Shown piece by piece: positions 19,601-28,600 of a stretch of 60,000 bases of DNA. The DNA lies in assembly GCA_044892525.1 (NCBI GenBank), contig CM097885.1, forward strand, positions 31,870,001 through 31,930,000, in the 5' to 3' direction. The position numbers and the translations under genes are program-made. How positions within the stretch are numbered: the first letter of the stretch is position 1; the number at the start of each line of letters is the position of its first letter. The notes under the pieces were generated by a model. The model was not told where the DNA came from. It did no database searches and saw nothing but the letters and a program-made list of their open reading frames with translations. Source of the DNA: Schmidtea polychroa (lineage: Eukaryota).

Positions 19601-22600
19601 CAAATATATCTTTATCATAATTCATTTCTACCACTGGTGCCGTATTGTCTAGTAATTTAATAATTTCTATTTGGTCTGCGATCTCGCATTTACAGCTCCA
19701 TACTATATTTTTTTGTTTGACCCGTTACTTTATTCTGCTTGGATCTTAAGGGTTATCTAGATTCATCTTCCTCTGGTACTAGTTTACATCGATTTGCATG
19801 CACAATCATCGGGTTAGCCTTTTTACTCCTGAATGGTAATAACTTCAAATTGGTTTCGGTGGTGTCGCACACTTTGTAGGGTCCTTTAAATGGTCTTTGC
19901 AATTTAGGCGATAAAACTTTGAGAGGTTCGGGTCTGTTAAGATATACTAGATCTCCAATCTTTATGCCATGCGCATGTGCTTTTTTATCGTAGGTTTCTT
20001 TATATTTCTCCTGGTTGTGCTTTATTGTCAAACCGGCTTTAGTCCATACTGACTGCATTCTTTCTTGCATCAATGCTTTATAATCGGGTATCTCCATATA
20101 TTGTGAAATTGGTAGTTGGAATTTGAGATCAATCGGCATATTATTTTTCCTTAAATACATCAAGTAAAAAGGGGTCTCTCCTGTACTTTGATTTACTGCA
20201 TTTCTGTAGGCAAATAGACACGGCTTTATGAAGTCGTCCCAATCTTTCTGTTTTCGGTTCACATATGATGAGATCATATTTATCAGTGTCCCATTAAATC
20301 GTTCCACTAATCCATCAGTTTGTGGATGATATGGTGACGTATTCAATTTCCAAATTCCAAATAGGTCTGTGATTGATTTGAACATTTCGCTTTGAAAGTT
20401 CTTTCCTTGATCAGTTAACAATTTCTTTGGAGTACCATAGCGAAATATTATGTTTTCCACAAATATTCTAGCAATCGTGTCGGCTTTTTGGTTTGGACCA
20501 GCGTATGCTTCTGGCCATTTGGTAAAGTAGTCACAAAAACAACAATGTATTTGTTTTCTTTTGTTGTTTCCGATAATGGTCCCAGAATATCCATTGCCGT
20601 CATCTCCATTGGTGCTGCAGGTACTGGCATCGGTTTTAATGGTACTTTAATCTTTTTACCAGTATTTCTGCGGGTGATGCATACTTTGCAACTGTTACAC
20701 CAATTTTTCACGTCTTGTTCTATTGTTGGCCAAAAGTATTTCAATTTTAATCTTGATAGCGTCTTGCGCGCTGACAAATGACCTCCCAACGCTCCATCAT
20801 GATACTGCATCAGTAATGCGTCTCTGTGCTTGGCTGGTATAATAATTAATGCTTCTCCATTTTTCCAACATTTAAGTATTCCATTATGAATTAGATATTT
20901 GCTGTTTGCATCTGTGAGTCGTTTCCAGTCTTGTTCTTTTCTTATTTTGAACGCTTGTTCCATAAATTGTTTTAATTCACTATCGTTTTCCTGATCATTT
21001 TGAAGTTCAGACATATCATTAACAGCTTTGATTGCAGCGAATATAGTGCCTTCCAATTTTTCAGGTGTCCTTTCACTATCATTTTCTGGGATTCTTGACA
21101 TTGCATCTGGATTCGCGTTAGCTTTACCTGTCCGATATTTAATCTCAAAGTCGTATTCTTGGAGGGCAATCGACCATCGTATTAACTTACTGGCTGAATC
21201 TCTGTGTTTCATTAACCACTGTAATGGATTATGATCTGTATAAACAGTAAATTTTCTGCCCAATAAATATTGTCTAAAAGTAGTAATTCCATACACTAAC
21301 GCTAACGTTTCCTTTTCAATCGTTGAGTAGTTTTTCTCGTGAGGCCTCAGTGATCGGCTTGTATATGCTATTACGTGGTCCTTTTCACCTTCAAATTTTT
21401 GTCCCAACACCGCGCCCAATGCAACGTTGCTTGCATCCGTCATCAAGATAAATTGTTTCGTAAAATCTGGACATCTTAATATAGGAGTTGTAACTAATTT
21501 CTCTTTTAATGTATTGAAAGCGTTTTGCTGCATTTGTCCCCAAATAAATTTATTGTTTTTCTTTAGTAGCGTATTCAATGGTTGTGCGATATGAGAGAAA
21601 TCTTTTATGAATTTTCTGTAATAGCTAGCCAAACCTAAAAATTGTCTAACCTCATCGGCATCTTTTGGTACTGGGTACTCTTCCTATTTCTTGATGTTAT
21701 CTGGATTAGTTTGTAACCCTCGCCGTGATATTATATGTCCTACATAAATCACTTCTGCTTTGCCCCATTCACATTTCGATGGTTTGATTTTTAATTTTGC
21801 ACTTTTGAGCCGTTTAAATACAGTTTCTACATCTTTCAGGTGTTCTTCAAAATCATTTGAAAATATTATTATATCGTCGATATATACCAATGCATGTCGA
21901 ATACCTCGTAACACATAATTCATTCCTCGTTGGAATGTAGCTGGGGCTCCTGTTAATCCAAATGGTAACACATTGAACTCATACAGTCCTTTGTCATCCG
22001 AGAACGCCGTCTTTCCTCTATCTTCCTCTTTTACTCTAAATTGATTGTACCCTTTGTTTAAATCAATAACAGTGAAATATCGTGCCTCTCCCATTTGATC
22101 AAACATTTCTTGGGGTACCGGAATTGGATAAGTGTCTTTCCTCGTAACTTGATTTAGCTTCCGATAATCTACGCAAAATCGTAAGTCTCCATCTTTTTTC
22201 TTAACTATCACTATTGATGAGGAGAATGGTGACGCGCTATCTCGAATTATTCCAAATTCCTTCATTGCTGTAATCTGTCTATCACTTTCATCTTGATGAA
22301 CGTAGGGGATTCTGTATGGCTTTATTTTTATTGGCGTTTCGTCTAATAACGGTATTTCATGCTCAATTACATTGGTTAAACCCAAATCATATTCGTGTTT
22401 GGCAAAGATATCTCGGTATTTTCTCAACAGTTTTGTGAATTCCTTTTTCTGTATCTCATTTAAATCATTGCTTACCACTCCAGGCTCCTTATACACCTTG
22501 ACGTTTCTTGGTATTTTACAATTTGTTTCAATAGACATTTTTGATAATTTTCCCAATTTTGTTTTTGGGTGTAGCTGAACCGGTTTCTTACTGCTATTCG

Positions 22601-25600: not shown

Positions 25601-28600
25601 CCAATCTCCAATATTATATAGGCTAACACTGTCAATATTACATCTCGATCCAACTCGGTTCGTGTTAGGTCCTCAATTACTGCTTCCTCACAAAATTCCT
25701 TTTCTTCATAATTTCTTTTAATTATCGACGGTAATCTCCTCTTTAATTCCGTTGCCAATCTTTTTACAACACTTTTCTCCCCCTCCGACGTATCATCTTC
25801 TATTTCAGTTTCATCTAACAAGTACAATTCCGTAACTAAACTTTTTAATATTCGCTCAGTCTTGCTTGATTCATCTAAACCTCAGTTTCGCTTGATTCAT
25901 CTAAACTTAAAGATTCAATTTCCACATCATTCTGTTTTTTCCGACATATCGCAATGTCATTTTTCGTTTCAACGAAGTTCTCTTCACTTTTCATCTCATC
26001 TATGCTCGGTAGTACCCTATTATCGGTGCTCAATTCCTCGATATCCCTTGTAACTTCATTTTTCGATCCCATTTCCTCATTTTCCATTGTTTCTAATCTC
26101 TGCAATTCATTAATTTCTTGATCAATTTCTCCTGGGTCATCTACAACTTCAGTTTTAATCTCTACATTATCATTATCCGTTTCCTCATACAGAGGCCAAA
26201 ACGGTACTATTACTGCATCTCTTTCCATTTCATCACTTTGTTTTGTTGCGTACACATTATTAATACAATTTGGGTTACATCCGTAGTTTAACAAATATTC
26301 GTCATCATCTAATTCTCGTCCTAATTGAACGTCAACACGATAATTCCTTCATTACCTAATATCTCCGCTGCTTTTTGTCGTATTTTCTTTGCTTTTATAC
26401 TCCAATGTTCCTGATAATATTCAATCCTTTGATCCGCAATATTTAACGCTATTATCAAAGACTTGGCACTATCGTCTGCCGCTTCATAATCATGTCCTAG
26501 TTTCCGGATTACCTCTTTTAACTTTGCCTGATAACTTGTCGGTTTATTCGTATACGGTACGATGCATTCAAACAACCCTTCTTTCATATCTCGGTCCATT
26601 TCGATGCTCATTATGAAGTCGATACTCGCATAAATTCTATCTCTATTCCCTGCATACAGGGTATCTTGTAAATCTGCTAGAATCTTTTCCCAATTTTGTC
26701 TGTTTGAATTCAAAGTATTAACAGCATTAACAACATTTACTTTATTTTTCCAGCCTGGTATCAGATCGTAATCTACCAAGTACTCTTCGTCTTCCAGACA
26801 TCGATTCTCAAATTTTGACGCAGTATTCGCTCCTTTAGCTCTCTGATTTGTCCGTAGGCATTTACACGGAATTGGCACTTCACATTATCAAGTCCCATCG
26901 TTTCCACTATGATATCAGCTAAATCCCTTGTTGACCGTAAAGCCTTGCCAAACTTTTGTATTTGCTTAAGTATCTCATCGTCTCTGCTTCCTTTGAATAA
27001 CTTTGCACATAAATTTATGGCTCTCTTTAGTTCGCTTTGGGTTAGTGATATCACACTGAGTTCTGCGATCCATCGTTTCAACTGGGAGTTGTCAGTTTCC
27101 ATTTTCTCAAGCCATTTTTCAACTCGGGCTAACAGTGCAGTCGGATTCTCATCTGATGCGATATTTCGCACTTTCGTGGCAGGTTTTCCCTCACCTTCTG
27201 ACACGGTTCCAATTATCATATGAGATTCAGTTTCCTCATCTGATTCAAATTTAGCCACTAGTTTGTTCAGCTTCTGTCGCATTTCTCGAAATTCCTTTTC
27301 CATTTTGTCTTGAAATTCCTCTCTCTGCGCATAGGTCATGTTACTGGTGTTTGGCATATCTTCTTGGAATCTGATCGATTTCTTTAGTATAGGTCTGCTG
27401 AATCTTTCTGAGTTCCTTGGGCATGATCGCGCCATGTGGCCGTATCCCTTGCACGAATGACATTGTATCTGTCCATTTGTATTCACTTTGTCCCGTTGTG
27501 GTGAAGGTGACGTTGACGATGATCTTGATCTGGTGAAACAGTTTCTGCTAATATGCCCTTTCTTTCCACGTCGATAGCATTCGACATCACTGCTGATCCG
27601 TTTGTTTTCTGTGAATCTCTTGTTAGGGCTGGGATTTTTCCCATATTTGAACCAACATTGATTTGAATAGTGTCCAGACTTTTTGCAATGTTCGCATTGA
27701 GGATTATTTACTTGTCCATTTGATTGTACGTTCATGGCTGATCTACTGGCTTGAAATCTATTATTTGGTCTCAAAATTGGACTACTGATTTGATTTATTT
27801 TCTTTTCATCCCATGGTGCTCTCACAGGCGTAATTGACCGCTCACGTCTCTCCACATTAACTCCAAAAGCATCTGATCTTTTTGCACTTTTTAAATTCAG
27901 CTTTATCTTCATGGCTTTCTTCACGAGCTCATCGAAATTGGAAAAATCCACATAACATAGGGCCTTTTTGATTTCGGAGTGGACTCCGGTTATAAACTGA
28001 TCTTCTAACAGCTTTTTAACCTGCTTGGCCATATCTGCTTGGTCTGGTTTAACTTCAAAGGCTTTATCTGCTAAAGTGGTCAGATGATAAGCAAACTCAC
28101 TGACCAATTCATCTGGACCTTGAACTCGATTATAAAATTTCTGTCGCATGATTCTTTTGATATCTCCACCAACCAGTTTCAGTGCCATTGCATCCTTCAA
28201 TTTTGTCCAATCATTGCCAACATTCCGTTTGTCGACTTGCTGCCAGGCTTCTCTTGCCGCACCCTTCAGAGAGAGTGGGAATCTCTGAACCATAATGGCT
28301 TGTGTCCATCCGTATGCTGAGGCGTACATATAATAATCTCCCATGAAATCTGCAAATTCAACAGGGTCTCCTCCATATTGATTGACGGGTAATTTCTGGC
28401 AACTTGCGAAATCAATCATCTCTCTATTGAGAGGCATAACAGCATTATCATTTGCCATTTGGACTTGTTTCTGACTTCTGAGGTTGTATCGGTTCACTTT
28501 GAGCTAAACTTCAAACGTTAAACAATAATTTAAAATTACTTTTCAACTTCTTTTAAATCTCCCAATAATAGCCTTTAATAATCTCGTTAGCACTATTTTC

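Follow-up and report, generated by a model that had tools for sequence, protein, structure and literature searches.

We analysed a stretch of 60,000 nucleotides from Schmidtea polychroa (assembly GCA_044892525.1, contig CM097885.1, forward-strand positions 31,870,001 to 31,930,000; hereafter the window, whose own numbering is used throughout). The window holds a decayed Gypsy element of 17.4 kb, which lies on the minus strand and is bounded by two long terminal repeats (LTRs). Sequence comparison identifies this element as Smed_errantivirus_2 in a decayed state; this planarian Gypsy element occurs in many copies and carries an envelope protein (Env) of the type of herpesvirus glycoprotein B (gB) and chuvirus G. 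The window copy is dead. Its family encodes one reading frame of about 3,330 codons, which runs through Gag, two ubiquitin-like domains, a Bcl-2-like domain, signal 1, Env, anchor 1, protease, reverse transcriptase (RT), RNase H, integrase, signal 2, a second ectodomain, anchor 2 and a PPxY tail. The second membrane protein, behind the integrase, is under purifying selection, judging from its pattern of variants. Taken as a whole, it appears probable to us that the window holds a decayed Smed_errantivirus_2 whose family makes a single-frame polyprotein threaded four times through the membrane of the endoplasmic reticulum (ER), which would yield membrane-bound Gag, Env and Pol and a second glycoprotein.

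The single frame was observed in natural genomic copies, on which we carried out the check for one open reading frame (ORF) that had been proposed for a consensus in a preliminary description of this DNA. When searching with the protein at the 3′ end of the frame, 121 matches of 94-100% identity were scored, nine of which lie in frames of 3,333-3,361 codons. The frame was at least 3,000 codons long in 14 matches, at least 450 codons long, reaching back into the integrase, in 106, and at most 420 codons long in 14. At several loci with a long frame for the 3′ protein, a match to Env was also found in a frame of equal length. In addition, the frame of sister locus L001 shows no stop over 2,801 codons, starting in Gag and reaching the edge of the locus within the integrase, and one contig of 9,057 bases from sequencing run X18 spans positions 19711-28601. 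Both run X9 and run X18 cover the element; that they represent RNA is a guess, and hence no claim on expression is made. Because natural sister copies are open throughout, and unrelated database proteins are open across the junctions as well, the single Gag-X-Env-Pol polyprotein put forward earlier is upheld.

The window copy itself is broken into eight frames, with junctions near 26814, 26323, 25880, 25208 and 20534. Contigs of all four sequencing runs carry insertions or deletions relative to the window near 25208, 25880, 26323 and 20534, and those of two of the four runs near 26814. This agrees with the earlier view that small lesions in this copy have separated the upstream ORFs. A short duplication near 25861-25906, formerly counted among these lesions, is also present in L001, whose frame is open there, and was therefore struck from the list. 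The stop at 21684-21686 falls on a site that is open in L001 and L003. At 19710/19711 the copy has lost about 170 bases and with them the signal segment of the second membrane protein. Programmed readthrough at a family-wide stop behind the integrase, suggested by a coincidence in length with published coordinates, is ruled out: at 19753-19755, 99 of the 100 listed genomic matches carry a sense codon, and the sole stop is that of the window itself.

The ORF of 1,172 residues that had been described as running from a Cys-rich ectodomain and a transmembrane helix into a protease (DSGS) and RT was confirmed. The frame at 25211-21684 (minus strand) is open for 1,175 codons from stop to stop, and the 1,172 residues start three codons in. 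There are 12 cysteines in its first 480 residues and a single strong hydrophobic helix at residues 490-508, and the Pfam matches follow in the order Monjiviricetes_fusion (PF24664), aspartyl protease and RT. The AYDC start of the ectodomain sits in the upstream frame 25881-25126, which matches positions 6-66 of PF24664 (E = 8e-4). The strong match of the ectodomain to this family (E = 4.2e-77) supports its earlier assignment to class III-type (chuvirus G- or gB-like) Env proteins; a comparison of Env with PDB sequences gave no relative, just chance rows of centrins. Signal 1 is flanked in L001 by six Lys or Arg residues before and none after, and its position is conserved in all 12 relatives aligned. 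The interval of about 200 residues between protease and RT, where the giant planarian Gypsy element Burro has a dUTPase-like domain, gave no Pfam match to a dUTPase, and the order protease-RT-RNase H-integrase in the Pfam matches is that of Ty3/Gypsy elements (Metaviridae).

We also scanned 15 database relatives, which were chosen by hand from 150 matches. Env and protease lie in one protein in ten of the 15, and Env through integrase in four; Gag-side sequence is also present in six. For a quick-search tree of Env, 33 of 151 proteins were picked by hand and the window was added; no named viruses were among them, so that no donor is claimed. In this tree the window and 14 close matches, mostly embedded in polyproteins, form one clade with a Shimodaira-Hasegawa-like approximate likelihood ratio (SH-aLRT) support of 100, separate from 19 mostly stand-alone glycoproteins. 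P0002, P0005, P0006, P0009 and P0013 each have two or three protease domains in tandem within one polypeptide, possibly forming single-chain dimers, and P0002 has a further protease-like stretch behind its integrase. The Env-Pol relative P0008 (HBK71150.1) is filed as a protein of a Flavobacteriaceae metagenome-assembled genome, where most likely a piece of eukaryotic DNA was binned with bacterial sequence.

The identity of the family was deduced from the Env sequence. Over Env domains I-II, 247 of 251 residues are identical, compared by eye, to the Smed_errantivirus_2 sequence of Chary & Hayashi (eLife 2026, PMC13524379). According to the main text and table of that paper, Smed_errantivirus_2 is present in 215 copies in Schmidtea mediterranea, has the order GAG-ENV-POL and a gB-type Env, and is entered with 'none' as primer-binding tRNA; the next-closest family has 64% identity, and all elements were assigned to Ty3/gypsy with hidden Markov models. 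When we searched for other Env families in the genome, mostly the Smed_errantivirus_2 family was found again. A 29-base pattern at the end of the integrase had 220 matches in the window's own assembly (781 Mb).

The LTRs, which the preliminary description had missed together with the continuation of the frame past the integrase, form a direct repeat at 29922-28873 and 13625-12573 with a Kimura two-parameter distance of 0.0134. A primer-binding-site-like sequence starting with TGG was found in two of three sister loci examined and is missing from the window copy; no tRNA genes were found in the window. TA runs adjoin all three LTR copies of the window (28730-28872, 12540-12572, 46780-46805 and 47864-47940), and both LTRs of the element end a few bases earlier than the solo LTR and the LTRs of L001 and L002. 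The coordinates of all parts are given in Table 1.

Table 1. Parts of the Gypsy element and related features in the window
Feature	Positions	Strand	Evidence and remarks
5′ LTR	28873..29922	-	starts with TG; 3′ end shortened, followed by a TA run
TA microsatellite	28730..28872	.	replaces the LTR end and the TGG-starting primer-binding-site-like sequence of sister copies
Gag: capsid-like domain, three CCHC knuckles	26911..28503 (28503-26773 in a wider delimitation)	-	PF03732 E 6.3e-9; PF00098 E 4.8e-7
Ubiquitin-like domain 1 (approximate; broken near 26814)	26745..26910	-	PF00240 E 0.0026 alone, scored on L001
Ubiquitin-like domain 2 (approximate; broken near 26323)	26230..26430	-	PF00240 E 0.13 alone on L001; weak
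Bcl-2-like helical domain ending in GGW	25480..25830	-	profile match to Bcl-xL
Internal signal segment 1 (predicted)	25378..25434	-	hydropathy peak, immediately ahead of the AYDC start of Env
Env ectodomain, class III-type (broken near 25208)	23745..25368	-	PF24664 E 4.2e-77
Env membrane anchor (predicted stop-transfer), then cytosolic tail	23688..23744	-	hydropathy 2.64
Aspartic protease (DSGS)	22857..23150	-	PF13975, PF00077; E 5.9e-8
RT core	21729..22205	-	PF00078 (RVT_1) E 1.1e-33; premature stop 21684-21686 behind
RNase H	21153..21467	-	PF17917 E 1.2e-40
Integrase, zinc finger and core	19756..20840	-	PF17921, PF00665; frame junction near 20534; stop 19753-19755
Second membrane protein	18711..19710	-	beta-rich ectodomain, four N-glycosylation sequons, Thr/Ser-rich stalk; anchor 18839-18783, PPxY tail 18746-18735
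Small separate ORF, CxxC and coiled coil, 84 codons	18280..18534	-	intact in 26 of 29 sister loci; no Pfam match under E 0.01
Polypurine tract	13629..13637	-	read from sequence
3′ LTR	12573..13625	-	98.3% identity to 5′ LTR
Solo LTR, same family	46806..47863	-	TG...CA ends, flanked by TA runs; about 95% identical to both element LTRs

The frame of the family was followed past the integrase at 30 loci, among them the window itself and a number of duplicated copies. At 27 loci no stop occurs within the first 60 codons, which cross a hydrophobic segment resembling a signal; at 12 the frame runs on for 408-410 codons, to anchor 2 and the PPxY tail. The ratio of nonsynonymous to synonymous polymorphism (pN/pS) of the second protein was 0.28 over 29 copies, which were chosen by best score so that the ratio is biased down; it was 0.19 for variants shared by at least three copies and 0.56 for singletons. 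For the integrase the ratio was 0.13 over 21 copies, with 0.02 for shared variants and 0.37 for singletons. The gap between shared and private variants points to purifying selection on active lineages.

Among the four relatives with a complete Pol, the integrase is followed by a signal, an ectodomain and an anchor in P0002 and P0008 and by a signal-like segment and a long extension in P0014, while P0016 ends inside the integrase. Compared with the window protein and among themselves, the extensions of P0002, P0008 and P0014 gave no significant match (best E 0.37). No homologues of the second protein were found at E ≤ 0.01 among 920 candidates of similar length and 1,480 longer ones, which is weak evidence as these searches were word-based, and there was no match among PDB sequences or in Pfam. 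The Atlas neighbours of the second ectodomain were clusters of fibronectin type III (FN3) and cytokine-receptor proteins (best 0.88), and all ten of the best named ones belong to one clan; this recognition is below threshold and serves as a lead, as do the short FN3-type motifs in the ectodomain. A single-sequence AlphaFold model had a predicted local distance difference test (pLDDT) score of 35.5, and fold searches were uninformative. Downstream of the second protein and of the small CxxC coiled-coil ORF (Table 1), about 4.6 kb up to the 3′ LTR hold no ORF of more than 80 codons.

The segment X between Gag and Env appears to consist of two ubiquitin-like domains and a Bcl-2-like domain. Scored jointly on sister copy L001, the two ubiquitin-like domains matched PF00240 at E = 1.4e-5, with 25.2 bits against a cut-off of 25.4. 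A profile built from five segments, the Bcl-2-like domain of the element and those of four relatives, matched Bcl-xL at E = 2.3e-4; proteins of the Bcl-2 family make up nearly all of its 60 best rows. PF00452 was matched at E ≤ 1 by four of the five members (best 2.5e-5, below the curated Pfam cut-off), the window member being the one without a match. GGW is invariant in all five segments, and NWGR, the BH1 motif of the Bcl-2 family, is absent from the domain. Its Atlas score of 0.88 is a lead only, and a single-sequence AlphaFold model was poor (pLDDT 43.9), with Bcl-2 proteins in the top Foldseek rows at E of about 1 and an unspecific result in the wide search. The domain is visibly kept in just four of the 12 relatives aligned.

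At the start of the frame, the first ATG of Gag at 28458 is preceded by 15 open codons (28459-28503, minus strand), which hold a YxLR motif. The motif is kept in L001 and L005, and its frame is disturbed in L002. YxLR was also seen directly behind the integrase in two relatives, at residue 2277 of P0002 and residue 2192 of P0008. The spacing in the element is that of the foamy-virus Gag nucleosome anchor, given as Y537-L539-R540 in the cited part of PMC9040877. This hints that translation may begin at a non-ATG codon or on a spliced RNA and that the motif may serve as a chromatin tether.

Hydropathy and the logic of flavivirus and alphavirus polyproteins, in which internal signals and stop-transfer anchors give cytosolic and lumenal products from one chain, lead us to propose that the polyprotein would cross the ER membrane four times. 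Signal 1 would direct Env into the ER lumen and anchor 1 would bring the chain back, leaving protease to integrase in the cytosol. Signal 2 would then turn the second ectodomain outward, and anchor 2 would leave inside the PPxY tail, a motif that binds Nedd4-family ligases. The orientation of anchor 1 and signal 2 is assigned because of parity and because Pol needs the cytosol. Thus, the topology in the preliminary description, with Gag cytosolic, Env lumenal and Pol cytosolic, fits hydropathy and flanking charges, but its two crossings would have to become four.

If signal peptidase cuts behind both signals, three membrane-bound pieces would result. The first, Gag-Bcl-2, would stay in the membrane through signal 1, in the way of tail-anchored Bcl-2 proteins. 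In the second, Env would carry Pol on its tail, pinned again by signal 2, so that Pol would form a loop fixed at both ends; the third would be another type I glycoprotein. All four products, Gag, Env, Pol and the second protein, would be produced 1:1:1:1 on one membrane, with neither a frameshift nor a spliced env RNA. The protease of the element would release the cytosolic parts, and particles would bud with Env as the fusogen, the second protein most likely serving in attachment or budding.

Several points weigh against this proposal. The charges at anchor 1 (+3/+1) and signal 2 (+4/+3) leave the orientation unfixed, and both the processing and the particles are deduced from sequence alone. 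The 30 and 29 loci counted above are not independent, as tandem and duplicated copies are among them, and picking the 29 by score lowers their pN/pS. The dissimilarity of the extensions in P0002, P0008 and P0014 leaves shared ancestry unsupported. Moreover, a 1:1 ratio of Gag to Pol is unusual, and splicing or degradation may alter the real products.

Other explanations of the layout were weighed as well. The eight frames of the window copy would fit a family with separate ORFs, in which Env and Pol became fused by chance in this copy alone or through a nested insertion, but every junction is read through in sister copies and unrelated proteins, and the embedded Envs form one well-supported clade of 15 rows in the quick-search tree. 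The full-length open frames refute this explanation, to which we give practically no weight. The polyprotein could also be real in an element that is no longer enveloped or infectious and moves intracellularly, with Env and the second protein merely anchoring Gag and Pol in the membrane or hitchhiking. An Env upstream of Pol in one frame is forced to stay open, since a stop in it would cost the element its Pol, no furin motif was found in the Env frame, and we found no report of planarian retroelement particles in the literature searched. Env proteins of the gB type do not always keep the furin motif, according to the main text of Chary & Hayashi (PMC13524379). Pol does not force the frame of the second protein, which lies behind the integrase and is yet under purifying selection, and Env has retained its cysteines and family profile over its full length. 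We regard a purely intracellular element as improbable.

A captured host cargo is a more serious candidate for the second protein, which could be a decoy of the cytokine-receptor or FN3 type that acts at the surface of the host cell and is not part of the virion; the ubiquitin-like and Bcl-2-like domains would be further cargo of this kind. The Atlas neighbours of its ectodomain lead in this direction, and extensions that are not detectably homologous between relatives would fit repeated independent capture; several host-modulating domains are described in the giant planarian element Burro (PMC6431247, section 7). On the other hand, no host or database homologue of the second protein was found, extensions of equal position and topology recur in relatives, and a protein translated together with Env as a single chain would be well placed for a role in the virion. 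We consider such a capture quite conceivable, about as probable as a virion role. A virion role for the second protein, which the four-crossing proposal favours, is itself tentative, and we would not count on it. It is rather doubtful that these planarian elements have envelopes and enter cells as retroviruses do, by a two-part apparatus in which a class III fusogen and a separate PPxY-bearing attachment glycoprotein would be cut from one four-crossing chain with Pol pinned to the membrane at both ends. If this were true, the layout recurring in distant relatives would be a distinct way of building an LTR virion.

Both the architecture pointed out earlier and the family itself are in the literature already, and the novelty that the preliminary description had implied for the embedded Env does not hold. 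GAG-ENV-POL elements with a gB-type Env are reported from nematodes, bryozoans and flatworms, and AlphaFold work covers this Env group (Chary & Hayashi, main text, PMC13524379). Like these HSV (herpes simplex virus)/gB-type errantiviruses and Smed_errantivirus_2 among them, the window element is multicopy and has env between gag and pol, with a gB/chuvirus-G-type ectodomain between signal and anchor. The words 'polyprotein', 'fibronectin', 'single ORF' and 'fused' are absent from the main text of that paper, and we found neither Bcl-2-like and ubiquitin-like domains nor a post-integrase membrane protein mentioned in it, its figures and GitHub sequences being outside the comparison. In the giant planarian Gypsy element Burro or GYPSM1 (Arkhipova & Yushenova 2019, PMC6431247, section 7), Env lies in frame between BCL2 and protease and matches mononegavirus fusion proteins. 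The single ORF of Burro also codes for Gag and a ubiquitin/SUMO-like domain ahead of BCL2, and for RT, RNase H and integrase behind the protease. However, Burro exceeds 30 kb and has an ORF of 4,873 residues with BIR, ankyrin and MATH domains, whereas the window element measures 17.4 kb, has about 3,330 codons and gave no such Pfam match at E ≤ 1. A post-integrase membrane protein is not mentioned in that section. The window element works like Burro and is not Burro.

Flavivirus and alphavirus structural polyproteins belong to unrelated viruses with class II fusogens and offer an analogy of processing only. Non-canonical endogenous retroviruses (ERVs) of nematodes are said to have a continuous gag-env-pro-pol ORF. 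As far as the record of Sacco et al. (2022) goes, they resemble the window element in having ENV before POL and a glycoprotein captured from an RNA virus, and differ in their nematode hosts. We found no description of a post-integrase membrane protein in the literature searched; figures, GitHub files, Repbase, Sacco 2022 and Grohme 2018 could hold one. Within this range, we could not find a published description of the variant proposed here, a polyprotein predicted to cross the membrane four times, with a second membrane protein that selection maintains behind the integrase.

The window also holds an intron-rich Argonaute gene (10611-50878, minus strand), with ArgoN at 50555-50878, ArgoL2 at 40135-40521 and Piwi at 35373-35708 and 31325-31573. 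The element lies in full, and in the orientation of the gene, between two sites that we take to be Piwi-like from their motifs, an exon near 31239 and the following motif at 10611, and the solo LTR lies in another intron of this gene. Planarian Gypsy elements are repressed by SMEDWI-2, according to the cited part of PMC8532177. A second Gypsy element occupies 54101-60000 on the plus strand, with gag at 58146-59000 (PF03732, E = 1.3e-11), an upstream RING-finger ORF at 55717-56226 (PF13920, E = 4e-11), a CxxC coiled-coil ORF at 54101-54853 and a 25-base tandem array near 56700. A Gln-rich ORF made of 45-base repeats (3342-4469) and a fragment of a Tc5/Tigger-type transposase (36650-37231, PF03221) were also seen.

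What is left as new is a testable model for assembly from one ORF and a selected second membrane protein, in a family of more than 200 copies in a laboratory animal. Herpes- and paramyxoviruses split binding and fusion between proteins. If the second protein is an attachment or budding factor of the virion, an env-bearing Gypsy element can divide binding and fusion between two proteins in the same way, and the cell-to-cell passage of errantiviruses outside insects would become testable with existing planarian RNA and protein data.

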